From a virus (taxonomy: Duplodnaviria > Caudoviricetes), in the IMG/VR virus record IMGVR_UViG_3300003375_000001, positions 96,001 through 160,000 of that record: a DNA stretch of 64,000 nt; one strand, written 5' to 3'. The notes beneath the pieces were generated by a model that saw nothing but the letters and a program-made list of their open reading frames with translations, did no database searches and was not told where the DNA came from. Below, in pieces: positions 26,010-41,935 of this stretch; position 1 is the first letter of the stretch; every line of letters begins with the position of its first letter. Both the position numbers and the translations under genes were made by a program.

Positions 26010-26969
26010 ATGAACCAATACGAAACTTACCTACGCCACGTTTTGACAAAGGGTCGCTACAAGACAGATAGAACAGGCACAGGCACCTTGTCGACCTTTG
26101 GGTATCAAATTAGGTTTGACCTCGCTGAAGGTTTCCCTTTGGTCACCACTAAGAAGGTGCACTTCAAGTCTATCGTCACTGAACTGCTGTGGTTCTTGCG
26201 TGGTGACACAAACGTCAAATGGCTGCAGGAACATGGCTGCACAATCTGGGATGAGTGGGCTCGGGCTGACGGGTCACTAGGTCCCGTGTACGGTAAGCAA
26301 TGGCGCGACTGGTCAGGAAAAGTAAGTTTACACCGTAGTGACGTGATTCACCCTTTGTATGCTAACGCGTATCTTGTCGATGAGGATAACAAAGGTGTAG
26401 TTGCTTTTCAGGAACGCATTGATCAATTACAAGACGCCATTACCAAGCTTCGCACTAACCCCGATGACCGTCGTATCATCGTTAGCGCGTGGAACGTTGC
26501 TGATATCCCTGACATGGCTTTACCACCTTGCCATGCATTTTTTCAGTTCTACACTGAGGAACTTACCTTGACGGAACGCGAAGACCTTGCCGCTGCCGAC
26601 GAGATTCCTAAATACTACATGGACGAAAATCATGTACCAACTCGTAGGTTGTCTTGCCAGCTGTATCAGCGGTCCTGCGATTCTTTCCTGGGCGTCCCTT
26701 TCAATATCGCAAGCTATGCATTGCTGACGCATATCATTGCAGCAGAAGTGAACATGGTCGCGGGGGACTTCGTTTGGACAGGGGGTGACTGCCATATCTA
26801 CAACAATCACATGGAACAGGTTCACCAACAGTTGCAACGTGACCCCTACCCCTACCCCACCCTCCTCTTTGTCAACGGCGTCAAGAAATTTGACGAATAC
26901 CTGCCTGGAGATTTTGACGTAGACAAATACGTTCATCACCCCGCCATCAAAGCACCTGTTGCGGTATGA
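26010..26969 (+). CDS. thyA: thymidylate synthase
   Basis: [54 protein letters not shown]. Confidence 0.97.
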
Positions 26970-29181: not shown

Positions 29182-29841
29182 ATGAAACATCGATTAAACC
29201 TACCAGGATTCGATTCCGACGTATGCTGGACAATAGACAAGACCCTAGAACTCTGCTATGGCCATAGGGTGTGGACGCAAGTTCTTGACGATAGATTTTC
29301 TAATGACCTAAAGTGTGCCTGCCGTCATCTACATGGACACGAAGCAAAGATTCAGGTTTACTTATCTGGATCAGAGCTGAATCCTCAAGGCATGCTGACG
29401 GACTTCCGTCATTTGGAATGGGCCAAGAAGTTGTTCAATAGCCTGATCGATCATCAATTTATTATGCACAAGGAAGACCCCTTGTTGCCTATCATTCTAG
29501 ACACCACTAAACCCGGAAGCTATAAGCCTGAGCCTCAGTTTTTAGATCAAGTGCCTCTAGGTAGCTGGACTACAGCCAGCAAGATGTTCCTAGGTACTAG
29601 AGTACTGTATAACGGAACTAACAACGCGGTAAACGAACTGTTTGACGGACTGTTAGTTGTAGACTTTGTTCCTACATCAGAAAACCTAGCCAAATGGGTT
29701 CACTCTATTGTCAACTTCCGTATGTATTCCTTGCAGGTCGCGTGCACCCGCGTGGACTGGTGGGAGACCCCAAAGAGTAGAAGCTCTCATGTTAATACAG
29801 AGTCAATCGCCTGGAATTCAGAGCCAACCTTTACCCTTTAG
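29182..29841 (+). CDS. queD: 6-carboxy-5,6,7,8-tetrahydropterin synthase
   Basis: K..E.CYGHR, CRHLHGH, DH, PTSENLA, WETP motifs. Confidence 0.9.
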   Translation: MKHRLNLPGFDSDVCWTIDKTLELCYGHRVWTQVLDDRFSNDLKCACRHLHGHEAKIQVYLSGSELNPQGMLTDFRHLEWAKKLFNSLIDHQFIMHKEDPLLPIILDTTKPGSYKPEPQFLDQVPLGSWTTASKMFLGTRVLYNGTNNAVNELFDGLLVVDFVPTSENLAKWVHSIVNFRMYSLQVACTRVDWWETPKSRSSHVNTESIAWNSEPTFTL

Positions 29842-29847
29842 TAGATT

Positions 29848-30399
29848 ATGGAAAACCACACTTTAACCAATGTCGAAAACGTATCTGCACGTATGTCTGA
29901 TACGATTTTTTCTGTCAAAGCCATAGTGCTGAGAGGTCTTCCAGGGTCTGGTAAGTCTACGTTGTCTAACTGGATAGTAGACACGTTGGCCTTGAAGGGG
30001 TTTACTCCGTTTCAGATTAACGCTGACTTTATTAGGTCAGGCCTTAATGCGCATCTGGGTTTTAGCCATGAGGATCGTATTCGTCAAGCAGAGTCTTTAG
30101 GTCATATAGCGAGGCTAGCCTTGTGCAACAAGTGTCTGCCCGTTGTTGACTTTGTTATGCCTACTGAGGAAACATTACACGCATTTACTAAAGGCTTCGG
30201 TACTGACAACTTCATGGTAGTGTCCATGCGCCCTTACCACGCCACAGACAAAGACAGATATGGGGATACGTCCGCTATATTCGAGGACGACGTTTCTAGC
30301 AGTTGGTACATATCTGACGACAACTGCCTTGAGCTATTCAAGTACAACTTCCAGCGTTACCCTGCCGACTTCTTTGTTCAACACCAATCACAAAATTAA
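29848..30399 (+). CDS. adenylylsulfate (APS) kinase-like P-loop kinase
   Basis: GLPGSGKSTL, NADFIRSGLN..LGFSHEDRIRQAE.LG matches the CysC pattern. Confidence 0.75.
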   Translation: MENHTLTNVENVSARMSDTIFSVKAIVLRGLPGSGKSTLSNWIVDTLALKGFTPFQINADFIRSGLNAHLGFSHEDRIRQAESLGHIARLALCNKCLPVVDFVMPTEETLHAFTKGFGTDNFMVVSMRPYHATDKDRYGDTSAIFEDDVSSSWYISDDNCLELFKYNFQRYPADFFVQHQSQN

Positions 30400-30400
30400 C

Positions 30401-30835
30401 ATGACAAACTTAACTCGCAATAATCCTCGCATTTGGGTGACCTTTCAGCTTGAAGGCTTCCACAGGTACCCTGACGCACCGGACCAAGTAGCCTACTTGC
30501 GAAATGAACATCGACACATGTTCAACTTCAAGGTGACGTTGGAAGTCACACATGACAACCGTGAAGTTGAATTCCACATGTTTAGGTCAGAACTGATTAG
30601 TCTGTTTGGTAAGAACACCTTACAGATAGATCACAAGTCTTGCGAAATGCTAGCCGCCGACGTAATGAACTACCTGGATATGGCGTATTCAGGGCGCTTT
30701 GCTGAGGTAGAGGTATCAGAAGACGGAGAATGTGGTGCTGTGTTAACACGCCCTAACGTAGAAGACGTGCGTGACGTGGTGAACGACATGCTGGCAGAAC
30801 ACCGTAGGAACTCTCATGATTCATTCGGAGCGTGA
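30401..30835 (+). CDS. second QueD-like T-fold protein (candidate DpdL-type enzyme)
   Basis: EGFHRYP, HRHMFNFKV, REVEFH, SCEMLA, EVSEDGECG; His-rich T-fold pattern distinct from the canonical QueD. Confidence 0.6.
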   Translation: MTNLTRNNPRIWVTFQLEGFHRYPDAPDQVAYLRNEHRHMFNFKVTLEVTHDNREVEFHMFRSELISLFGKNTLQIDHKSCEMLAADVMNYLDMAYSGRFAEVEVSEDGECGAVLTRPNVEDVRDVVNDMLAEHRRNSHDSFGA

Positions 30836-32216
30836 ATACCATCAAGGCAAATCGCGCTTGGTATTTGCCGGACAAGAGTCACTTAACGGCTATTATCAAA
30901 TAGCCGTTAAGTTTGAAAAGAACAAAAACACGCAGACACTAGTTAGCCGAAACCCCAAGGTGCTAGAGATAAGGCTGCCTGATAGGACTGTGTACGTGTC
31001 GGGCAAGTCATCAAAAAGGTCTACAGTCCTTGATAGAGACGTTGATCTTATAGTGTCTACTAAACGGGACTTGAACCAGCATAAGGAAATGGGGACTGAC
31101 ATGCTTCTGTTCAATCCCATCCATGCGCCTCTTGCTATGGACACCCGTTCATACTTGCGTGAAGGCATAGACGTACTGGTCGACTCTGGAGGGTTTCAGC
31201 TAGCGCAAGGTACGTCAGACTTTGTGTCCCCATTGGAGACCGCTCAGTTCTACACTAAACATGCGTCAATAGGCATGGGGCTAGACTTCCCCTCTCCAGG
31301 TTTTATAGACAAGGCTCTATACGTGGAGAACTGTAGACTACAGGCCCTTAACAACGATTACATCCGTAGAAACATTCCTGACACCGTTAGTATGGCCCCC
31401 GTTGTTCACGGGGTTTCGCCTTTTACGCGCAAGCATTGCCTAGACACAGTTTTTAAGAAAGGCCGTGACAAGGCAATGGCACTCGCGGGCCTTATATCAA
31501 AAAGAACAGACTCGCCAGAGGCATTCAAACAGAGATTCGCGTGCATGGCTATGGTTCTAAATGAAACACGTCAGGACGTCATCTACTATCACGCTCTGGG
31601 AGCAACATCCCCTTGGATGCTGGCGTTGTACGCGCTGCTAACGAAGTCTAACTACGTGGTATCAATTGGTGGAGACTCCGTTAGTCACAGGCAGAATGCT
31701 ATCGGTGGGTCTTACAAGATACTACCGTACTTCAACGGTCCTGTCACCTTAACTCAACCGGTTACAACCAATACGCCTGCCCGACTCCCTTGTAGCTGCC
31801 CCGCGTGTGTAGCCGTAGGGGACGCTCGCATCTTGAGAGACTTTCGCATATCAGAGCTTCATCACTTGTATATGGCTAGTCATCAGAAGGTGTCCATAGA
31901 CAATTGCATTGACGCTTATATAAAGGGTCGGGTGTCGCGTGGGGAGATGTGGAAGTTTGTTATGGGCGATTCCAACCAAGGTTTCCGTACATTACCAAAC
32001 ATGGTATTCGACTACTTTGAGGCTGTGTTATCAAAGGGGTATGACAACGTGCCTAAGCTAGCGCCCTTTAAGGGGTACAGTGCGCGAGGCTCTTTATTTG
32101 GCTCGGCGGCTAGTACCAGTAAGCAAAAAAGCATCTTTGACAGATATCATGCCATTCACGCAGTTTACGAAAAGTTTCATGGCGTGTCCTTAAAGACTGG
32201 AAAGAAACTTGCATGA
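30816..32216 (+). CDS. dpdA: DpdA-like DNA guanine transglycosylase (TGT fold)
   Basis: VDSGGFQ, GLDFP, PVVHG, YHALG, DSVSH, CSCPAC..H zinc site; clustered with queD/queE/folE. Confidence 0.8.
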   Translation: MIHSEREYHQGKSRLVFAGQESLNGYYQIAVKFEKNKNTQTLVSRNPKVLEIRLPDRTVYVSGKSSKRSTVLDRDVDLIVSTKRDLNQHKEMGTDMLLFNPIHAPLAMDTRSYLREGIDVLVDSGGFQLAQGTSDFVSPLETAQFYTKHASIGMGLDFPSPGFIDKALYVENCRLQALNNDYIRRNIPDTVSMAPVVHGVSPFTRKHCLDTVFKKGRDKAMALAGLISKRTDSPEAFKQRFACMAMVLNETRQDVIYYHALGATSPWMLALYALLTKSNYVVSIGGDSVSHRQNAIGGSYKILPYFNGPVTLTQPVTTNTPARLPCSCPACVAVGDARILRDFRISELHHLYMASHQKVSIDNCIDAYIKGRVSRGEMWKFVMGDSNQGFRTLPNMVFDYFEAVLSKGYDNVPKLAPFKGYSARGSLFGSAASTSKQKSIFDRYHAIHAVYEKFHGVSLKTGKKLA

Positions 32217-32659
32217 CCACTGACATAAGAATAAGGGGTAAGGCATACAAAGACGTAGGCGGTCTTGTATTCTTTCCTGACAAGCATAACAGGCAACTAT
32301 GGGAAAGCGCCGGCTACTCAGTTTACCCCAGAATAGAATCTTGGATAACTGCTGGTTGCCCCGACAAGTCTGTTGTACATGACTACGCTGGGGTATTGGT
32401 TGATACAAGCATACCCATTGTAGACTCTGTGTATAGACACGGTATATACCACAAGGTTCAGAACTTCGTCTACAAAGGGTTACCTGCAACAGTCTACTCC
32501 ATTCGACCACTTGCTAAAGAGGCAAAGATGTACTCTAAGTTTGAAATGGAAATTCTTGACAATCACGGCGTCACCATGGTTGACGCAGAAGTATCCAAGG
32601 CGTCTTCCGGTCATGGTAAGATGACACGGGGCGGTTCACACAGAAAGGCCAAGAAATGA
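32213..32659 (+). CDS. hypothetical protein in the modification cluster
   Basis: ATGA-coupled to dpdA. Confidence 0.7.
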   Translation: MTTDIRIRGKAYKDVGGLVFFPDKHNRQLWESAGYSVYPRIESWITAGCPDKSVVHDYAGVLVDTSIPIVDSVYRHGIYHKVQNFVYKGLPATVYSIRPLAKEAKMYSKFEMEILDNHGVTMVDAEVSKASSGHGKMTRGGSHRKAKK

Positions 32660-33441
32660 AAGTTTGCTTTGTCTTAAGAAATGCTCCCGATTGGCATGGC
32701 CTGTCAAAATTATATGACAAGAACGGATACGTAGACCCTTCTTTATATCTTCCCCGTGACAAAGTCCCTTGTTTTCCTAAAAATGTTCCTCATTTTATAG
32801 ACGTTTGGAACGACACCCTTCCTGTAAGTTACTTTAAGTTCAGGTCCGTCCTGTCCGACGTGTCTAGGGCCTATGTTAAGGCTACAGGCTGTCCTTCCTT
32901 CTCTATAAGTTGCATACCCAACGACACAAATACGCTGGTTTACTTTCATGATGACGATGATCTTTTTTCATCAGAAATAACAGGCCTCACTCTACCTGAC
33001 GGTTATGACGTAACAGTAACGCCTCTCCTTCGTATAGACCCCAACAACTACTTCTTATTTTCGGCTGTACCTGTTACTTGTGGCATAGAGGTAAAGGCGA
33101 ATACCTATAGGTATAACACCAATAACTACGGAATACGGGCGTCCGTAATAGCGGATGCGCCAGGTCCTCGGGCCTACGAGGACCATATTAGAGCCTCTAC
33201 CTATGCTAAGACGGCTCTGTTAAAAGACAGTTGGTGTAACACAGTAGTTAGCGCAACCATCAAAACTCCAGCCAGCGCGTCTATCCTACCAAGAAGCTGT
33301 AAGTCACCAGAATCTCTTATAAAACAACTGTCTAAGTTTGACGTACTCTTAGGAAGTCTTTTGACTGAGCCTTTACATTCTAGCCTAGTCAAAAGTCTAA
33401 CCGAACTCCGAGTATTAACTTCGGATGCTCTTTCCAAGTAG
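32656..33441 (+). CDS. putative GT-A-like glycosyltransferase
   Basis: YFHDDDDLF (DxD-type) motif after a beta strand; family assignment tentative. Confidence 0.45.
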   Translation: MKVCFVLRNAPDWHGLSKLYDKNGYVDPSLYLPRDKVPCFPKNVPHFIDVWNDTLPVSYFKFRSVLSDVSRAYVKATGCPSFSISCIPNDTNTLVYFHDDDDLFSSEITGLTLPDGYDVTVTPLLRIDPNNYFLFSAVPVTCGIEVKANTYRYNTNNYGIRASVIADAPGPRAYEDHIRASTYAKTALLKDSWCNTVVSATIKTPASASILPRSCKSPESLIKQLSKFDVLLGSLLTEPLHSSLVKSLTELRVLTSDALSK

Positions 33442-33447
33442 GTAACC

Positions 33448-34128
33448 ATGAAAAACATACTCATCCTGTCTATGCCTCGTACCCGTAGTACCTTGCTGTA
33501 TAAGGCTATATGTCAGAAAAATCCCGAGTACTACCGTTTCTACGAGCCAGGACTCGGGTATAACTGGGGTAAGTTACAGCCTAGAGAGGCTGCGGCTTTG
33601 AACGAAGCAGAAATGACGAACGTGGATAAGGCCCTAGCTTCGGGTAAGGGGACAATCGTTAAGCTCCTGCCCGCAGGTCCTTACTACCAGATATCACCAG
33701 GCCGTCTCCTAGAATGGAGTCAAGCATTCGACACCGTGTACGTCCTCAATCGGGACTTCAAGGACATTGCTAAGTCTTTTATCATAGCTAGCTCTACCAA
33801 TGTCTTTGTTGCCGATGAGGACAATCGAATAGCCCCTCGCACCACAGTGGCCTACAACCCCTTTGTTCATGAAAAGATTATATGGGAGCTGGCCTATGGC
33901 CGACAGAACCTCGACTACTGGGGAACAATTCTGACTGATAAACCACGCAACGGTAAGACCAAGTATGTAACGGAGATTGAGTATGACCATGTGTTACGCT
34001 ACATGGAGAGTCATGGTCTGAATACACAGGCTACCGAGGCTCAGACTGAGGTAAACTTTATAGACAGCGACGAGTTTACCTCACACGTTGCTTACGCCTC
34101 TAGGCTATACAACGAAAGCTTAGTATGA
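33448..34128 (+). CDS. sulfotransferase-like protein
   Basis: N-terminal ILILSMPRTRSTLL (PAPS-binding loop like PRTGST) followed by FYEP. Confidence 0.65.
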   Translation: MKNILILSMPRTRSTLLYKAICQKNPEYYRFYEPGLGYNWGKLQPREAAALNEAEMTNVDKALASGKGTIVKLLPAGPYYQISPGRLLEWSQAFDTVYVLNRDFKDIAKSFIIASSTNVFVADEDNRIAPRTTVAYNPFVHEKIIWELAYGRQNLDYWGTILTDKPRNGKTKYVTEIEYDHVLRYMESHGLNTQATEAQTEVNFIDSDEFTSHVAYASRLYNESLV

Positions 34129-35219
34129 AACGAGTTCTATTCATAACGGCTACACCATTTACTCCGGCCAACCAAGGCAATTCTCAAAGAGCCTTGCAAA
34201 TGCTTGAGATATATAAGCAACTCGGTTACTCTGTTACCGTTCTATATCACGAAGCGGAAAGGCCCTTCGACTTTAACGATAGGGACGACACTAAGGACAC
34301 GGTAGACATTCTTAGAGTGGTTACTACAAATACAGACAAGTCCTCATTCCTTGATCCTATAACGCACCAGGCCAATCCGGATGACTGGTTTGACGGGTAT
34401 TTATTACTGAAGTCGGAAATCGAACTTCAAAGAAGCCTTTACCATTTTGACGTGGTGCACGTAAACTACGTTTGGTATTCTAAGGCGTTTGAATACTTTC
34501 CAAACTCCTTAAAGGTGATTGACACCCACGACGTGTTCTCCAATAGAGACAAGGTATTTACTAAAGCTGGACTGAAACCAGAATGGTTCTCTACTTCTAT
34601 AGACGCAGAGCGTGAGGCTCTTCTTAGAGCTGATATGGTGCTGGCTATATCTACGGAAGACGCACGCGAGTTTTTGTGTCTAGGTGTAGTACCTACCTAC
34701 CTGCCATACTACAGAGAGCCTTGCAGGAGAAAGCCAGAGGTAGGTTACATAGCAGCGGACAATGACTTTAATAGGCTCGCAGTTAGACACCTGTTGCTCT
34801 CTTTCTCGCAACTCACACACCGCAACTTTATTTTGAACATCGCAGGCTCTATCTGCAAGTATGCAGAGAGCCTACGGGTACTGGGTCTGGCTGACAATGA
34901 GGTTGTTTACTCCGGCTATGTGAAACACCTTGACGAGTTCTACTCTAGTATTGACCTTGCTGTTAATCCAGCTAAAGCAGGCACCGGTTTAAAGATAAAG
35001 ACCATAGAGGCTATGATGTATGGCGTGCCGGTTGTAACTACTAGCGCAGGTAGTACTTCAGCCTTAGATAATTGTCATTCCAGATCCGTTACTGTAGTTA
35101 AGGACACTGACGAACTAGTGAGAGCCTGCCAAAGCCGTTTCGAAATAGAGGGGATACGACCGTATGTGAACGACTACCTCAAGTCCCTTAGCTTTTTTCA
35201 AGCCCAACTAAAATCATGA
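34125..35219 (+). CDS. GT4 (GT-B) glycosyltransferase
   Basis: IDTHDV, AIS.ED, GYV..LDEFY, GTGLKIKTIEAMMYGVPVVTT. Confidence 0.85.
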   Translation: MKRVLFITATPFTPANQGNSQRALQMLEIYKQLGYSVTVLYHEAERPFDFNDRDDTKDTVDILRVVTTNTDKSSFLDPITHQANPDDWFDGYLLLKSEIELQRSLYHFDVVHVNYVWYSKAFEYFPNSLKVIDTHDVFSNRDKVFTKAGLKPEWFSTSIDAEREALLRADMVLAISTEDAREFLCLGVVPTYLPYYREPCRRKPEVGYIAADNDFNRLAVRHLLLSFSQLTHRNFILNIAGSICKYAESLRVLGLADNEVVYSGYVKHLDEFYSSIDLAVNPAKAGTGLKIKTIEAMMYGVPVVTTSAGSTSALDNCHSRSVTVVKDTDELVRACQSRFEIEGIRPYVNDYLKSLSFFQAQLKS

Positions 35220-35920
35220 CCAAGACTATCAAAATCTACCAGATGGAGTCCACAAGTAAGTGCTCCGCTACGTGCTCCTTTTGTCCTCATCCTACTATGG
35301 AGAGAACGAAAGAGCATATGGACTTACACTTGTTCAAACGAGCTATCGATGTGATGGAGAACGACTATCTCGCTCTACATCACTTTGGTGAGCCTCTTCT
35401 GCACCCTAACCTACCAGACATGATATGGTATGCCAAAGAGAAAGGTAAACGTGTTGAATTCAGCACGAACGGGAAAGGTTTGAATAATCAGAAAGACGGC
35501 GACGACTACCTCCGTCGCGTTCTGGCTGCCGAACCTCATCGTATGCGTATTGCTTATGACTTCTTTCAACCGGATGAGTTTGTCAAAAAAGCTCTAACGC
35601 TTAACGTGTCAACCATTATTACTATGCACGCGGTAACGAAAGGCATACTCCTAGACTACAAGCCTCTCAACAACTGGGCTAATCAAATGCCTGAGCTTGG
35701 AGAGTCAGAGATAAAAGGTGAATGCTACTTCTTGAAGTACAACTACTACGCTGTAATGGCTAGTGGAAATGTAGTCCCCTGCTGCCAGGACTACGAAGGC
35801 AAACATGTGATTGGTCACATCGACGACTTGGATAACCTCAAGCCCCAAAAATCTTACACCCTGTGCAAAGGTTGCTCGGGCATGCAGTTTGCCAAGGACG
35901 GAGGCTGGGTTGCAGAATGA
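35216..35920 (+). CDS. radical SAM protein with SPASM/twitch-like C-terminus
   Basis: CSATCSFC, HHFGEPLLHP, STNG, PCCQD...CKGC. Confidence 0.88.
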   Translation: MTKTIKIYQMESTSKCSATCSFCPHPTMERTKEHMDLHLFKRAIDVMENDYLALHHFGEPLLHPNLPDMIWYAKEKGKRVEFSTNGKGLNNQKDGDDYLRRVLAAEPHRMRIAYDFFQPDEFVKKALTLNVSTIITMHAVTKGILLDYKPLNNWANQMPELGESEIKGECYFLKYNYYAVMASGNVVPCCQDYEGKHVIGHIDDLDNLKPQKSYTLCKGCSGMQFAKDGGWVAE

Positions 35921-36636
35921 CTACAAAAACCTTTACCATAGTAGCACCTCACGTCGATGACGAGGTAATAGGATGCTATAGCCTTCTTGACGCTGGTCTA
36001 GTGTCTGAAGTAATATACCTGTATGAAGTAGACGAGGTGCGAAAGTCTGAGGCTCTTGCTTGCGCTAAGAGGTTCGGGTTTAAAGCTACCATAGCTGGCG
36101 TTGACTACCCCGAGTCGGAGTTACAGGCCTACTTAAGAAAAGACGTAGCGCGTAGTATAGTTTTGCCTTCAGCTTATGACAGCCATCCTGACCATAAGAA
36201 GGCGAATGCAAAGTTTAGGCCTATTGACGACTTTTCCTATACGTCTTACTACGGGGTGGACATGAGCACTCCTAATACTACGGTACTATCGGTTGAGACT
36301 CGTGACAAAAAGAGACATGACCTTTACACCCTCTTCCCCTCACAGGCCTCGTTGTTTAATAGCAGTGATAAGTATCATCTGTTCGAAGACATGAGGAACC
36401 ACGACTGCACTTTCTATAGAAATTATGGGTGGACTAATAGAAATAACACTAAGATCGTCCTGAGTAGCTTTGGTGAAAGGGGCTTCCCTCCTAGTCTCGA
36501 ATGGTGCTTCCATGCTATTGATAACGTTGGTGCTCACAACATAGAGCTAATAGCTGATCGTATCCGCTCCCTGTACCCTAAGCTAGGGGTTAAGGTGACT
36601 GTTAACGAGTCTCACTCTGTTAGTATACCTATCTAG
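35917..36636 (+). CDS. PIG-L/LmbE family de-N-acetylase
   Basis: VAPHVDDEVIG and HPDH motifs; ATG 35917 overlaps the upstream stop. Confidence 0.8.
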   Translation: MTTKTFTIVAPHVDDEVIGCYSLLDAGLVSEVIYLYEVDEVRKSEALACAKRFGFKATIAGVDYPESELQAYLRKDVARSIVLPSAYDSHPDHKKANAKFRPIDDFSYTSYYGVDMSTPNTTVLSVETRDKKRHDLYTLFPSQASLFNSSDKYHLFEDMRNHDCTFYRNYGWTNRNNTKIVLSSFGERGFPPSLEWCFHAIDNVGAHNIELIADRIRSLYPKLGVKVTVNESHSVSIPI

Positions 36637-36644
36637 GACACGTA

Positions 36645-36842
36645 ATGACTTTGAGCCAACAGCCCTCTGCGGAAGAATTACTGTCAATACTCTACCACTC
36701 GCTGCCAGACATTCTCCCTGCCGTTGTAGTAGACAGATTCAATAGAACAGGTGTCTGGGCTGAAGGCAGCCATTACGCTAAAAGAGGTTTTACCTCAAAG
36801 GTAGTATACCGACTTGACGATGATATTCACATAGTCCTGTAA
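36645..36842 (+). CDS. hypothetical protein
   Basis: AGGA RBS. Confidence 0.5.
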   Translation: MTLSQQPSAEELLSILYHSLPDILPAVVVDRFNRTGVWAEGSHYAKRGFTSKVVYRLDDDIHIVL

Positions 36843-36897
36843 GTCATGGATAGCGCAAACAAACTCTTCACACAGGCTAAGCCTAAGGAAACTCACC

Positions 36898-36975
36898 ATG
36901 AACCTAGTTAAACAGCCACTCCCCTTGTACCTTGTACCCTTGGAGCCTATAGCGTCTAAAATCTTGTACCGTTAG
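36898..36975 (+). pseudogene. stranded 5' end of the glycosyltransferase gene (MNLVKQPLPLYLVPLEPIAS-KILYR*)
   Basis: Strong RBS AAGGAAACTCACC-ATG; LYLVPLEPIAS matches LFLVTLEPIAS at the start of 37987-39147. Confidence 0.75.
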
Positions 36976-38040
36976 AACCTCTCATTTTTATTCAGGATAA
37001 ACTACACCTGACGAAAATGCCTAAAATCATATGGACTGACGAAAAGATTAAAACTGAATTTTACAGTGCTTGGAAAAATGCGTGTGTAATACTAAATAAG
37101 GGCACTAAGGGCAAGGCTTCCCGCTTAAAAATTAAGTGTACGCATCATGGTATATTTGAAAGCACTGTAACCAACGCTATTCGTAAAGGCTGCCCTCACT
37201 GCGCGGGCCTTACCAACTATTTATGGTCTGATGAAAGAAAACAAAAGGCCAGCCATAGACAAAAAGGTGAGCCTAAGCGTAAGGGGAGAAATAACCCCTT
37301 AACTCTTACTTTAGAAGAAGTTAAAAACAAGATAGTTAGTCTGCATGGTAATAGATACGACTTGTCTTTCATAAAAGACCCTTTCCCGCCTAATAACAAA
37401 TTTACCTTAGTATGTTCTACTCACGGTAAATTTGTCAAACATCGCACAGACATCCTGTATAACGCTAAAACAGGCTGTCCAAAATGTAAAGGTGGGAAGC
37501 TGTTAACGTCTATAGAGGTTAAGAAAAGGTTGAAGGCTACGCAGCCTAAATGGATAAGTTATTCAAAGCTAGAGTACAGTAGAGAAGGCTTTACCATAAC
37601 ATGCAAGCTCCACGGCGATAGCATAGTAAAGCCAAGTAGAATCTATTCTAAAGGCTACGTTTGCAAGCAGTGTAACGTTAAGAGAGTTAGAGACTTAAAG
37701 GTTGCAAGTGGTTTATACCTTGACCCGAAACTAAAATCAGCCTTTGCCGTATACAGGCAAGAAGTTAGAAGACTTTCCGATAAAACGTTTAAACTTCACT
37801 TCGATAAGGACACCCGGACTAAAGACGTTCACTTAGACCACGTATATTCTATAAGATCGGGATTTGACAATGAAGTCCCACCTGAGGTTATAGCTAGTTT
37901 ACCTAACCTTAGACTTCTGTCCAGAACAGATAACCAGAGTAAACGAGATAAGTGTGACATTTCACTAAAAACCTTGTATAAGTTATATGCAAAGACCAAA
38001 AACTAAACTTTTTCTAGTTACTCTTGAACCTATAGCGTCT
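36958..38040 (+). mobile_element. free-standing HNH homing endonuclease insertion carrying a replacement 5' end for its target gene
   Basis: Bounded by a 12-nt direct repeat CCTATAGCGTCT (36946-36957 and 38029-38040); visibly more A-rich than its flanks. Confidence 0.7.
37017..38006 (+). CDS. HNH homing endonuclease with three Zn-finger repeats
   Basis: C..HG.F...GCP.C-type repeats x3; HLDHVYS...NLRLLSRTDNQSK HNH core. Confidence 0.85.
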   Translation: MPKIIWTDEKIKTEFYSAWKNACVILNKGTKGKASRLKIKCTHHGIFESTVTNAIRKGCPHCAGLTNYLWSDERKQKASHRQKGEPKRKGRNNPLTLTLEEVKNKIVSLHGNRYDLSFIKDPFPPNNKFTLVCSTHGKFVKHRTDILYNAKTGCPKCKGGKLLTSIEVKKRLKATQPKWISYSKLEYSREGFTITCKLHGDSIVKPSRIYSKGYVCKQCNVKRVRDLKVASGLYLDPKLKSAFAVYRQEVRRLSDKTFKLHFDKDTRTKDVHLDHVYSIRSGFDNEVPPEVIASLPNLRLLSRTDNQSKRDKCDISLKTLYKLYAKTKN

Positions 38041-39147
38041 CGGTATACAGGTTCTTGGTACAAAAACTTTCCCCCAGCCTTTGAAGAGCTGGGGTTTGCC
38101 GTTACTGTGCTTGACGGTACGCCACTCACAGATACCATAAAAGTTGGTAGCTTTCTTGATATCAATTCCACGATAGCTTATAAGAACTCCCAAATGGGGA
38201 AGATAGCTGGCATGTTTCATAGAAAGGAAGTGCCTCAAGGCGCTCACTTCTATTTCATGGACATAGAATTCTGGGGAATTGAGTCGTTGCGCTTGATGGC
38301 TGACATGAACAACGTCAAGATTCATATATCCGGGTTCCTGCATGCGGCTTCTTACACAGTAGACGATGCGTTTTCTATTGCAGCTCCTTACCAGAGGTAT
38401 ACAGAGGTTGGCTGGATAGCGGCATTGGACTTGGTATTCGTTGGCTCGGAGTACCACAAGAGAGCACTAATAGACCGGCGTCTTACTCTACCAGGTCTAA
38501 GCGACTTGTCCAAGAAGGTAATCGTAACCGGCAACCCCTTGTTTCAATCTGATTATCCTGTTTATGGCTTGCCAAAGAAGAACCAGATAATACTGCCTAA
38601 TCGTATTGACTGGGGTAAGAGGCCTGACCTTAGTTTTGCTGTGGCTGCGTTGTTCAAGGCACAGAGACCTGATTGGAATGTAGTAGTAACAACAGGTAAA
38701 GAAACGTTGTCCAGTGATAAGCAATGGCTTAGTGACTATGCCTACTGGATGCAGAAGCTAGGAGTTCTTGAGATAAAAACCAACTGTACTAAGGAAGACT
38801 ACCATAAGACCTTAGCCGAAAGCAAGCTTATGATGTCATTCTCTATAGAGGAAAACTTCGGGTACTGTATAGCAGAAGCCATTATCTATAACGTACTGCC
38901 AATCCTTAGGTCAGGCTTGTCCCATGACGAATTTAGCCTTCCAGATGCCTGCTATTTTGATGACGAAGACGGAGCGTTAAAAACATTGTTGGCCCTTACG
39001 GATCTTAATAACTATAAGTATAAGCATAGAGTGACCATAGAGGATACCGTTAATACACTAAAGCACGGTAGCTGTAAGTATTTAGGCTACCCCGGTAACA
39101 ATACGTCTATACGGGAAATGGCTATTGAAATGAAGGCTCTGATATGA
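37987..39147 (+). CDS. GT-B fold glycosyltransferase-like protein
   Basis: LEPIASRYT..W, FLHAASY, NRIDWGKRP, EENFGYCIAEA (ExFG..E nucleotide-sugar motif). Confidence 0.75.
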   Translation: MQRPKTKLFLVTLEPIASRYTGSWYKNFPPAFEELGFAVTVLDGTPLTDTIKVGSFLDINSTIAYKNSQMGKIAGMFHRKEVPQGAHFYFMDIEFWGIESLRLMADMNNVKIHISGFLHAASYTVDDAFSIAAPYQRYTEVGWIAALDLVFVGSEYHKRALIDRRLTLPGLSDLSKKVIVTGNPLFQSDYPVYGLPKKNQIILPNRIDWGKRPDLSFAVAALFKAQRPDWNVVVTTGKETLSSDKQWLSDYAYWMQKLGVLEIKTNCTKEDYHKTLAESKLMMSFSIEENFGYCIAEAIIYNVLPILRSGLSHDEFSLPDACYFDDEDGALKTLLALTDLNNYKYKHRVTIEDTVNTLKHGSCKYLGYPGNNTSIREMAIEMKALI

Positions 39148-39602
39148 GACAAGACCTTGTTGTGTTTGACATTGACGGCTGCGTTATTGACTCTGAACAT
39201 CGAGTTGATCTAATGCATCAAGGCAAGATAGATCAGTACCATGCAAAGTGGGTAGACGACAAACCTATTAAACAAGGTTTGGTTATTTACGATCTGATCA
39301 TGAAGACCAGTGACCTTAAGTGGGTGTTCGTAACCGGTCGCTTCGAATCGTGTAGAGAGTACACCCAAGCTCAACTGGAAGGTATGTTTGGTGAAGTTGT
39401 CAACTCGAAGAACCTTTTGATGCGGCCTGACGGAATGACCTCAAAGGTTAAAGAAGACGCGGAGCTGAAGCCATGGCTGCTTGAACGCGCCGGCTACTCG
39501 CTGGATAGAGTTTTTCTTGTGTTCGAAGACCGTAACAGCATGGTTAAGGCCTGGCGCAAACTAGGCAAAGTGGTCTATCAAACCGCAGAAGGGGATTTTT
39601 GA
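39144..39602 (+). CDS. HAD phosphatase (PNKP-like)
   Basis: VFDIDG, VTGR, LLMRP, FEDR. Confidence 0.88.
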   Translation: MRQDLVVFDIDGCVIDSEHRVDLMHQGKIDQYHAKWVDDKPIKQGLVIYDLIMKTSDLKWVFVTGRFESCREYTQAQLEGMFGEVVNSKNLLMRPDGMTSKVKEDAELKPWLLERAGYSLDRVFLVFEDRNSMVKAWRKLGKVVYQTAEGDF

Positions 39603-40414
39603 TGACTATACCTATCGTCGTGCAGAATGCCGACATCAATTTGACCAAGAACTTCTTTAAGAACTTCAAAGAAGATGAGCTAGCTGTTCACGGTACATTT
39701 TACACAGTACAAGGTGAGGGGCCCTTAGCAGGTATTCCTGCCTGGTTCATTAGGCTGGCCGGTTGCAACTTCGGTGCCAAGGACATAGCTTGCAGTTTTT
39801 GCGATACGGCTTTTAGTGTTATGAAGTCTAAGGTAAGGACCATTCACGATCTGTGCAATGAGTTTTATTCCCTTTGCTACGGCTTAGGCTTTGTCCCAGT
39901 AGTGGTTATAACTGGAGGTGAACCCCTGCTCCAAGATAACGTAGAAGGGCTGGTTAGCGCCTTGCTGACTAAGACCAGTCTTTACTATGTGCCTAATACC
40001 AAGGTTCAGATAGAGACAAATGGTACACAGATACCCGTTGTTAAAAGGCTACTAAGAGACTGGGAAGACGAAGAAAATTTCGCTTTGGTAATAAGTCCAA
40101 AGACTGTTAAAGGTAGCTATGGGTTAGAAAAAGACTACGGGTATAAGACTGGATACTACTATAAGTTTGTAGTGTCCGCTGACCCTAACAACCCACATCA
40201 TGAGGTACCCAAATGGGCAGACAACATTATCACGTACGTTTCTCCTATGACAGTGTATAAAAAAGCGTACGAAGGTGAAGTGTCGAGCGTTTGGGACGGT
40301 GACCTCATAGACAGAGAAGCCACTAAAGCCAACTATGAATACGCGGCTAAGCTGGCTATGAAATACGGCTATAGGGTGTCTGTTCAAATGCACACCTTTC
40401 TTAATATCGCATAG
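39599..40414 (+). CDS. queE: 7-carboxy-7-deazaguanine synthase (radical SAM)
   Basis: FYTVQGEG..G.PAWFIRLAGCN......CSFCDT, TGGEPLLQ, IETNG, SPK, SVQMH. Confidence 0.92.
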   Translation: MMTIPIVVQNADINLTKNFFKNFKEDELAVHGTFYTVQGEGPLAGIPAWFIRLAGCNFGAKDIACSFCDTAFSVMKSKVRTIHDLCNEFYSLCYGLGFVPVVVITGGEPLLQDNVEGLVSALLTKTSLYYVPNTKVQIETNGTQIPVVKRLLRDWEDEENFALVISPKTVKGSYGLEKDYGYKTGYYYKFVVSADPNNPHHEVPKWADNIITYVSPMTVYKKAYEGEVSSVWDGDLIDREATKANYEYAAKLAMKYGYRVSVQMHTFLNIA

Positions 40415-40417
40415 ATC

Positions 40418-41269
40418 ATGAACCACATACACGAAAAGCATAGTCTTGAGTCCTCGATAAGAGGTATGTATCCTCAGGACGCAGAAACCCTTGTCGATCA
40501 CGCTGCTGACATTAAAACGGCTATAGCAAAGTATTGTAGTGACGAGGAGTCATTGTCCATGCTTGACGGTCAAGCGTCTGAGTCGGAGCTTGCAAACTTT
40601 GCAGACACACCTATTCGTGCGGCTAAGGCTTTGCAGGGAGTGCTTAAAGAAGTAGCACGCTTGGAAGAGGACACTTGTCAGCCTCTTTACCTTCATCGCG
40701 TGCTTAACGACAGAAAGACTCTTATAGACAGCCTAATGGCTAAGCCTAGATACTTCGCGGAAGTAAAGGAAATCATCGCTACAGGTTTTCCTACAGAGGA
40801 TGAGGACTGTGGCATTGTCACTCAAGGGCCCATTCATGCAAAAGGTCTATGCCCCCATCACTTCCTTCCGGTTTACTACACGGCCTTTATTGCTTACAAA
40901 CCCACAAAGGGTGGGTATGTACTTGGTCTAAGCAAACTGGCGCGCATTGTGATCGCCTTAGCCGCTCGCCCCGTTTTGCAAGAACAACTTACTGCCGATA
41001 TTGCCGACGTTCTATATAGGCACAAACAATCCAGTGTGCCTAGCGCGCAGGCTATTACAGTGAAGCCTACTGAGTCAAGACCTTGTATAGACAGCGATGG
41101 TTCAGCTCTACAGCTAATTGGTGAGCACACCTGCATGTCGTGCCGTGGCGTACGGTCTAACGCACGTACACTAACCACTGTTCTAAGAGGTGCATTCTCA
41201 AAAGACTTACACCTCAAAAGCGAGTTCTATTCCGCTATAGAAGCCATTAGACAGACGCGAAATGGCTAA
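40418..41269 (+). CDS. folE: GTP cyclohydrolase I
   Basis: DTP.RAAK, LCPHHFLP, LGLSKLARIV, LQEQLT, HTCMSCRGV. Confidence 0.93.
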   Translation: MNHIHEKHSLESSIRGMYPQDAETLVDHAADIKTAIAKYCSDEESLSMLDGQASESELANFADTPIRAAKALQGVLKEVARLEEDTCQPLYLHRVLNDRKTLIDSLMAKPRYFAEVKEIIATGFPTEDEDCGIVTQGPIHAKGLCPHHFLPVYYTAFIAYKPTKGGYVLGLSKLARIVIALAARPVLQEQLTADIADVLYRHKQSSVPSAQAITVKPTESRPCIDSDGSALQLIGEHTCMSCRGVRSNARTLTTVLRGAFSKDLHLKSEFYSAIEAIRQTRNG

Positions 41270-41902: not shown

Positions 41903-41935
41903 GAAAAGGGCCACTAGGCCCTTTTCCTATTTCTG
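41903..41935 (+). terminator. intrinsic terminator
   Basis: GAAAAGGGCC-ACTA-GGCCCTTTTC followed by T-rich sequence. Confidence 0.85.

Follow-up and report, generated by a model that had tools for sequence, protein, structure and literature searches.

The 64,000-nucleotide stretch analysed here (the window) covers bases 96001-160000 of a phage genome that is complete at 238,517 bp and has direct terminal repeats (IMG/VR record IMGVR_UViG_3300003375_000001). At window positions 29182-41269, every gene lies on the plus strand and the genes are close-packed, many with 4-nt start/stop overlaps (Table 1). This cluster carries genes of the 7-deazaguanine pathway and, among them, a CysC-like kinase gene and a gene for a 226-aa sulfotransferase-like (ST-like) protein, which are the subject of this report. 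A first-pass annotation, made from the sequence alone, had placed the kinase between queD and a second T-fold gene and had recognized the ST-like gene, by its PRT(R)ST motif, three genes beyond the TGT/DpdA-like gene (30816-32216); coordinates and order were correct in both cases. The gaps flanking the kinase gene measure 1-6 nt, and 4-nt ATGA overlaps prevail from dpdA onward. Adenosine 5'-phosphosulfate (APS) kinase makes 3'-phosphoadenosine 5'-phosphosulfate (PAPS), the donor used by sulfotransferases, and our analyses indicate that the kinase and the ST-like protein probably constitute a phage-encoded sulfation pair.

The kinase and its phage relatives

The kinase matched the Pfam APS_kinase profile (PF01583) far beyond chance (E 1.5e-13; 51.5 bits against a cut-off of 21.1) and was the single match to this family in the complete genome. 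All 21 matches of a phmmer search of the PDB were APS kinases, as were the top 50 Foldseek matches (E 6e-9, TM-score 0.6-0.68) of its AlphaFold (AF2) model, which had a predicted local distance difference test score (pLDDT) of 81. Its P-loop, GLPGSGKST, occupies residues 30-38 and is followed by INAD at residues 57-60, while R137-Y138-x-D-T is a remnant of the lid. In the motif R-[FY]-x-D-T-x3-[FYW]-[ED], the spacing matches what we take to be the canonical consensus F-T-G-I-D-x2-Y-E, so Y138 may be the second adenine-stacking aromatic residue. We read the active site by alignment to Mycobacterium tuberculosis CysC and its published active site, where Asp480 is the catalytic base and Arg483, Phe492, and Arg497 hold the phosphosulfate and adenine of APS (PMC4373884). 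These four residues correspond to D60, R63, F72, and R77 of the kinase, all with little or no variation across the phage family. Thus, with canonical CysC enzymes (M. tuberculosis 4BZP and 4RFV; human PAPSS1 2OFW) the kinase has in common the fold, the P-loop, the catalytic Asp, both Arg residues of the APS site, and the Phe, whereas it differs in lacking approximately 20 lid residues, in reading INAD for LDGD, and in belonging to a phage-specific clade. By alignment and model, we classify it as a lid-truncated member of the APS kinase family with an apparently intact APS site, the product of which would most likely be PAPS.

A scan of viral contigs yielded more than 272 relatives of the kinase, from which 80 loci were kept. 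Neighbourhoods were counted over 85 non-redundant loci after clustering the neighbouring open reading frames (ORFs) without prior labels; many of these loci are closely related to one another, hence there are fewer independent events than these counts suggest. The relatives in the loci kept from the scan all have GLPGSGKT, NAD-x2-R, LGF-x3-DR, and DF[VI]CPT, and the kinase belongs to a large clade found only in phages. The commonest neighbour family in the 85 loci was Pfam Sulfotransfer_3/Sulfotransfer_1 (E 2e-19 and 5e-12). A sulfotransferase was recognizable in 22 of the 42 loci with an unfused kinase and, in 16 loci (all unfused), the sulfotransferase gene ended 8-20 nt before the P-loop codons of the kinase.

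Relatives with 40-48% identity were present in three different thymidine-hypermodification clusters of the 5-hydroxymethyluracil (hmU) type (L001, L009, L010), which carry a 5-hydroxymethyldeoxyuridine (5-hmdU) DNA kinase, a Sulfotransfer_2 protein, glycosyltransferases or TAGT, and a thymidylate-synthase-family gene. The same arrangement exists in a cultured phage, Ralstonia phage phiRSL1, whose ORF230-238 bring together, as here, a kinase of the same clade, a sulfotransferase, and glycosyltransferases in a DNA-modification cluster. Its depositors annotated an APS kinase, three HMC-glucosyltransferase-like proteins (HMC, hydroxymethylcytosine), two sugar nucleotidyltransferases, a galactose-3-O-sulfotransferase, and a thymidylate-synthase-family gene. 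The identity of the kinase to its counterparts in phiRSL1 and the three hmU clusters is 33-48%. These clusters are built on genes of the thymidylate-synthase-family, 5-hmdU DNA kinase, and TAGT types and use a Sulfotransfer_2 enzyme, whereas the cluster studied here is based on 7-deazaguanine and its sulfotransferase is of an unrelated, Stf0-like family. The closest relatives of the kinase (53% identity) come from a sister phage (L003-L005).

In 43 of the 85 loci, the kinase was fused to a C-terminal domain of approximately 120 aa with similarity to archaeal NMNAT-type nucleotidyltransferases (GR[YF]QP[WF]HxGH ... ISAT.IR), for example at L020:9956-10747, L026:10001-10807, L091:4133-4966, and about 40 other loci. 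This layout recalls PAPS synthase or CoA synthase, and a sulfotransferase was found in just four of the 43 fused loci. A minimal sulfurylase-kinase is one candidate role for the fused protein, among others.

The sulfotransferase-like protein

The ST-like protein has the N-terminus MKNILILSMPRTRSTLL, with PRTRST at residues 10-15. An exhaustive HMMER search recovered eight relatives, two of which had weak family matches (E 0.002-0.004), while a word-based protein search returned the self-match alone and tblastn against 50,697 phage records returned nothing. Sulfotransferases bind the 5'-phosphosulfate through a loop of consensus P-K/R-x-G-[ST]-[ST] after strand 1, and the 3'-phosphate through an R-x7-S motif at a strand-helix junction. 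The family alignment contained ten invariant residues, including R11, E33, P34, K72, R102, S110, Y136, and W158. The loop consensus was P-R-[ST]-x-[SGT]-[ST], with R11 invariant, and the invariant pair R102/S110 had the R-x7-S spacing of the 3'-phosphate motif. Because of the Arg at the usual Gly of the loop, the first-pass annotation had considered activity uncertain. This concern was not borne out, since position 13 is naturally R, L, or Q in the family while R11, R102, and S110 do not vary, and the substitution is, as judged from this alignment, no sign of decay. The same annotation had proposed to look for both motifs by structure prediction, and they were found where expected: in the AF2 model (pLDDT 83.6; predicted TM-score 0.82), loop 10-15 follows strand 3-8, and R102 and S110 lie where strand 96-101 meets helix 104-117.

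No single test was decisive for the identification of this protein, but several independent tests converged. In a profile search of the PDB with the ST-like family, the top match was Stf0, weak (E 0.087) and exactly at both motifs. Alignment with hhalign to the phage Sulfotransfer_3 family gave E 4e-5 with both motifs in register, and the same comparison with phage Sulfotransfer_2 proteins gave no meaningful match. Fold searches aligned sulfotransferases over residues 1-226 (Z 8.1-9.6), among them heparan 2-O-sulfotransferase, SULTs, Stf0, and NDST (Z 8.3-9.6). Among ESM Atlas neighbours retrieved by features, every one bearing a family was a sulfotransferase cluster (Stf0-type, Sulfotransfer_1/3), and most of those retrieved by structure were also sulfotransferase clusters (TM-score 0.61-0.66). 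The strongest single result came from gene neighbourhoods: in three unrelated contigs (L099, L102, L103), a distant member of the ST-like family is directly followed by a phage-type APS kinase gene. In a further contig (L100), the distant member is followed by a PIG-L-type gene. Of note, an NDP-sugar dehydrogenase-like gene (L099:2153-3037; NDP, nucleoside diphosphate) comes directly after the pair in L099, a contig of 5 kb with a RecA gene, and this is a further sugar-nucleotide setting for the family.

With the trehalose 2-sulfotransferase Stf0 (1TEX; PF09037) and related carbohydrate sulfotransferases, the ST-like protein has in common the 5'-phosphosulfate loop with its Arg, the R-x7-S motif, and apparently the overall fold. 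It differs from Stf0 in being shorter, in having Arg at the usual Gly of the loop, and in having no significant match to Pfam sulfotransferase models. We consider it likely, from motifs, model, and gene context, that the ST-like protein is a PAPS-dependent, Stf0-like sulfotransferase, and its relatives make up what we classify from sequence as an unnamed and unannotated viral sulfotransferase family. In the complete genome, no match was found to the Sulfotransfer_2 or Sulfotransfer_3 models, nor any PAPS reductase or ATP sulfurylase, which would make the ST-like protein the sole phage-encoded user of PAPS.

A small radical SAM/SPASM gene travels with the ST-like gene in four lineages. The radical SAM/SPASM protein is 86% identical in the sister phage (L003:18913-19614) and 69% in L016 (L016:7358-8188), where its gene lies directly 3' of the ST-like gene, while the ST-like proteins share just 39 and 27% identity, respectively. 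The two enzymes may act on the same intermediate.

The probable modified base, the proposed sulfate acceptor, and competing explanations

The cluster encodes FolE, QueD (CxxxHGH), QueE, a DpdL-type protein (LxxxHRHxF), and a DpdA-like protein, and thus has the DpdL-type gene pattern for 7-deazaguanine (dDG); QueC was absent from the complete genome. According to Cui, Hutinet et al. (NAR 2023, PMC10516641), DpdL is the proposed 7-carboxy-7-deazaguanine decarboxylase, in which the CxxxHGH of QueD is changed to LxxxHRHxF, and it occurs in phages that have DpdA, FolE, QueD, and QueE and lack QueC. The type case is Cellulophaga phage phiST, in which all G is replaced by 7-deazaguanine. Since the second T-fold protein fits the DpdL signature (LRNEHRHMF) and the genome lacks QueC, the inserted base is probably, on these sequence grounds, 7-deazaguanine or its carboxy precursor rather than a base of the preQ0 type. 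The 466-aa DpdA-like protein matches no Pfam model and was identified by motifs and distant homology. By tblastn, it is 30% identical to a protein encoded beside QueE and FolE in Burkholderia phage BCSR5 and 24% identical to the annotated TGT of phage Motura; it shares 57% identity with its homologue in L003 and 52% with that in L014. FolE, QueD, QueE, the LxxxHRHxF paralogue of QueD, a very divergent TGT-like DpdA, and the lack of QueC are common to this phage and phiST. Here, however, these genes are interleaved with those for the kinase, the sulfotransferase, three glycosyltransferase-like proteins, a PIG-L deacetylase, and a radical SAM/SPASM enzyme, and term searches of the phiST paper (PMC10516641) returned neither glycosyl nor a kinase or sulfotransferase partner.

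From these elements, we propose the following scheme. The cluster would make 7-deazaguanine through FolE, QueD, QueE, and DpdL, without QueC, and the DpdA-like transglycosylase would insert the base into DNA. As the phage lacks ATP sulfurylase, the kinase would take APS made by the host and phosphorylate its 3'-OH to give PAPS, from which the Stf0-like enzyme would move the sulfate to a hydroxyl or amino group. The acceptor would most likely be a sugar or amino sugar on modified phage DNA, since the pair sits in a coupled cluster with three glycosyltransferase-like proteins, PIG-L, and radical SAM/SPASM. Such a hypermodification would be bulky and anionic and would block host nucleases. That the kinase and the ST-like protein act together, as the first-pass annotation had suggested, agrees with the finding that, in several phage lineages independent of one another, genes related to either one adjoin relatives of the other. 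A sugar acceptor is also favoured by the nearest characterized relatives of the ST-like protein, which are carbohydrate sulfotransferases, by the GT4, GT-B, and perhaps GT-A-like glycosyltransferases (GTs) and the PIG-L deacetylase of the cluster, and by the NDP-sugar dehydrogenase gene of L099. Taken as a whole, the statement that a sulfation pair acts on a sugar acceptor with modified phage DNA as its target is, in our view, almost evenly poised between right and wrong. DNA as the target, which the gene context suggests, falls somewhat short of even on its own. The full chemistry, in which phage DNA would contain a 7-deazaguanine-derived base with a sulfated sugar or amino sugar made by a self-supplied PAPS module (the lid-truncated kinase and the Stf0-like family), is a tentative proposal that we would sooner doubt than accept.

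The sulfation pair could be real and its target not DNA at all. In this case, the sulfate acceptor would be a free glycoside or other small molecule, a glycan carried by a virion protein, or a polysaccharide of the host envelope, and the cassette would merely reside inside the cluster. Several findings count against a DNA target and fit this explanation. Many metagenomic kinase-sulfotransferase pairs lie amid sugar-tailoring and related genes (2-oxoglutarate oxygenases, carbamoyltransferases, methyltransferases, sugar epimerases), and DNA-modification genes are not seen at these loci; the pair in L099 is accompanied by the NDP-sugar dehydrogenase; and in L016, genes for a radical SAM enzyme and a carrier protein occur with the ST-like gene. 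In addition, 7-deazaguanine has no obvious attachment point for a sugar. Finally, the cultured jumbo phage BCSR5 (MW460245, L097, 2308-21540) has homologues of DpdL, DpdA, the 148-aa protein, GT-B, PIG-L, the HAD phosphatase, QueE, and FolE, nearly all annotated as 'hypothetical', but differs in having no kinase, ST-like protein, GT4, or radical SAM/SPASM enzyme. It thus resembles an unsulfated version of the system, and sulfation would be an optional layer. On the other hand, the genes studied here have deazaguanine genes on either side and show translational coupling, L003 and L014 retain the succession of dpdA, the 148-aa gene, and the ST-like gene, and the same enzyme pair occurs inside hmU DNA-kinase/DNA-glycosyltransferase clusters in three other lineages and in phiRSL1. 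We regard a target other than DNA as unlikely, though deserving serious consideration.

A second explanation concerns the kinase, which could be a diverged P-loop kinase for another nucleotide or adenylylated compound, such as a deoxynucleoside monophosphate kinase working with thymidylate synthase, or the 3'-kinase of another AMP-X. What sets it apart from APS kinases gives this idea some substance. Against the NCBIfam apsK equivalog model it scored 49.7 bits, under the cut-off of 138.7, and its Pfam alignment, which starts at profile position 4, ends at position 105 of 152. The LDGD of CysC reads INAD, with Asn58 in place of Asp478. The first half of the lid is absent: the chain is approximately 20 residues short between strand 4 and R-[FY]-x-D-T, a gap that includes the equivalents of Arg559 and of Lys562, the latter said to stabilise the transition state in CysC (PMC4373884), and the phage family alignment has no conserved Lys in the lid region. 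The genomic context can also be read this way: the kinase gene lies beside or near a thymidylate-synthase-family gene in L001, L003, L009, L010, and L012, and sulfotransferases are rare where the NMNAT-like fusion occurs. In the sister phage (L003-L005), the kinase gene is beside thyA, with the deazaguanine cluster and its ST-like gene 4-7 kb downstream (7 kb to the ST-like gene in L003); judging from this comparison, the kinase gene was moved into the deazaguanine cluster in the phage studied here. However, conservation extends to the residues holding the phosphosulfate and adenine of APS, unfused kinases most often directly adjoin sulfotransferases, and relatives of the ST-like gene are directly followed by the same type of kinase. 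In phiRSL1, the kinase is seven genes away from the thyA-family gene, yet in the same cluster as the sulfotransferase. A substrate other than APS therefore seems improbable.

The 226-aa protein, for its part, could be a degenerate protein of the P-loop kinase fold that binds a nucleotide or DNA phosphate and is no sulfotransferase. Indeed, it had no Pfam, NCBIfam, or PHROG family match, even at E 10 for Pfam and NCBIfam, the hhalign probability against phage Sulfotransfer_3 was just 70%, and its fold scores tie with those of P-loop nucleotide kinases (adenylate, thymidylate, shikimate; Z 9-10). Mixed fold matches are expected, as sulfotransferases share the P-loop kinase fold. The kinases, though, aligned with residues 1-191 only, whereas sulfotransferases spanned the whole chain. 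No Walker-A Gly or Lys (no GK[ST]) is conserved in the family, whose invariant positions belong to the two PAPS-binding motifs. With the profile match, the ESM Atlas neighbours, and the adjacency to APS kinase genes all favouring a sulfotransferase, we consider a degenerate kinase very unlikely. Least credible of all is that the kinase is an ordinary auxiliary metabolic gene (AMG) that boosts host sulfate assimilation independently of the ST-like gene. In its favour, viral cysC has been described as a widespread sulfur-assimilation AMG in aquatic viruses (bioRxiv 10.1101/2021.01.05.425418), but that study never mentions sulfotransferases, and this phage lacks cysH, cysD/N, and sulfurylase and has the gene inside a DNA-modification operon, with a kinase family linked to sulfotransferases.

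Known DNA hypermodifications of phages add sugars, amino acids, and polyamines. The first-pass annotation knew of no characterized sulfated base in phage DNA, and our literature searches likewise turned up no paper describing one, nor any tying sulfotransferases to deazaguanine or thymidine hypermodification. The idea of sulfation is not wholly new, as a 2024 paper reports phage glycosyltransferase and sulfotransferase systems for nucleotide glycosylation and sulfation and credits them to Iyer et al. (2013). What is new here is a proposed sulfation layer on a 7-deazaguanine system, with an unnamed sulfotransferase family; the kind itself had been predicted computationally before. If correct, the proposal would represent the first case of a sulfate ester or sulfamate on natural DNA of any kind and, among phages, the first DNA with a glycosylated purine. 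Such strongly anionic DNA chemistry would bear on restriction evasion, packaging, and the sequencing or enzymatic handling of the DNA. The analysis also suggests a function for viral "cysC" genes, so far regarded as AMGs of sulfur assimilation: in phages, they would most often be partners of sulfotransferases. Cultured test systems are at hand in phiRSL1 for the hmU type and in BCSR5, an unsulfated deazaguanine control and a candidate for a glycosylated deazapurine without sulfation.

Other genes of the cluster and its surroundings

The cluster had no near-identical counterpart in phage DNA by megablast against 50,697 phage records. The coordinates of its genes are collected in Table 1.

Table 1. 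Genes of the deazaguanine and putative sulfation cluster, in window coordinates.
Feature	Position	Strand	Evidence
QueD (6-carboxy-tetrahydropterin (CPH4) synthase)	29182-29841	+	Pfam PTPS E 2e-22; PHROG QueD-like E 9e-30; NCBIfam QueD E 6.5e-14; CRHLHGH = CxxxHGH motif
Predicted lid-truncated APS-kinase-family kinase, 183 aa, ATG start	29848-30399	+	Pfam APS_kinase PF01583
Second T-fold protein, DpdL-type QueD paralogue	30401-30835	+	LRNEHRHMF motif; PHROG 17812 E 3e-27; 51% identity to BCSR5 homologue
Divergent TGT/DpdA-like DNA transglycosylase, 466 aa	30816-32216	+	VDSGGFQ, CSCPAC...H; NCBIfam TgtA E 0.011 at zinc motif
148-aa protein, no family match	32213-32659	+	Homologues directly 3' of DpdA in L003, L014, BCSR5
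261-aa protein, possibly GT-A-like (weak lead)	32656-33441	+	Low-confidence ESM Atlas model similar to GT2 clusters, TM-score about 0.5
Putative orphan Stf0-like sulfotransferase (ST-like), 226 aa	33448-34128	+	PRTRST loop nt 33475-33492; R102-x7-S110 nt 33751-33777
GT4-family glycosyltransferase	34125-35219	+	Pfam Glyco_trans_1_4 E 3.4e-17; homologue 3' of ST-like gene in L014
Small radical SAM/SPASM enzyme	35216-35920	+	Pfam Radical_SAM E 1.2e-8, SPASM E 6e-4
PIG-L/LmbE-type deacetylase	35917-36636	+	Pfam PIG-L E 4e-5 (below cut-off); APHVDDE and HPDH motifs; BCSR5 homologue 34% identity
HNH/DUF723-type homing-endonuclease-like insertion	37017-38006	+	Pfam DUF723 E 1.3e-7
GT-B glycosyltransferase	37987-39147	+	Pfam Glycos_transf_1 E 2e-5 (below cut-off); 62-69% identity in L003/L004; 49% in BCSR5
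PNKP-type HAD phosphatase	39144-39602	+	Pfam HAD_PNKP E 3e-14; BCSR5 homologue
QueE (7-carboxy-7-deazaguanine (CDG) synthase)	39599-40414	+	Pfam Radical_SAM E 6e-10; 45% identity to annotated BCSR5 7-carboxy-7-deazaguanine synthase
FolE (GTP cyclohydrolase I)	40418-41269	+	PF01227 72.7 and 28.8 bits at window 40766-41239

The 148-aa protein had no ESM Atlas match and, given its conserved place directly 3' of the DpdA-like gene, may be an accessory subunit of the transglycosylase. For the 261-aa protein, Pfam and NCBIfam gave no match and a homologue was absent from L003. We compared it with a 280-aa protein of L099 as a possible common glycosyltransferase partner and found no similarity. The GT-B glycosyltransferase is a core partner of the DpdL/DpdA set, its BCSR5 homologue being encoded immediately upstream of DpdA. 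The HAD phosphatase was considered as a 3'-phosphatase for 3'-phosphoadenosine 5'-phosphate and set aside, as BCSR5 retains it without any sulfation genes. The likely start of the PIG-L-type gene is the ATG at 35917, which overlaps the preceding stop codon. The HNH/DUF723-type gene, just upstream of the GT-B gene and overlapping it, is absent from this site in the sister phage (L003, L004) and is an insertion outside the modification pathway.

A scan for promoters and terminators inside the cluster gave nothing above shuffled sequence. About 630 nt past FolE, at window 41903-41926, a perfect 10-bp GC-rich hairpin can be read on both strands and may be a bidirectional terminator. Upstream of the cluster, thyA (window 26010-26969) is intact, whereas the thymidylate synthase gene of the sister phage (L003:10525-12467) is interrupted by a LAGLIDADG endonuclease insertion.

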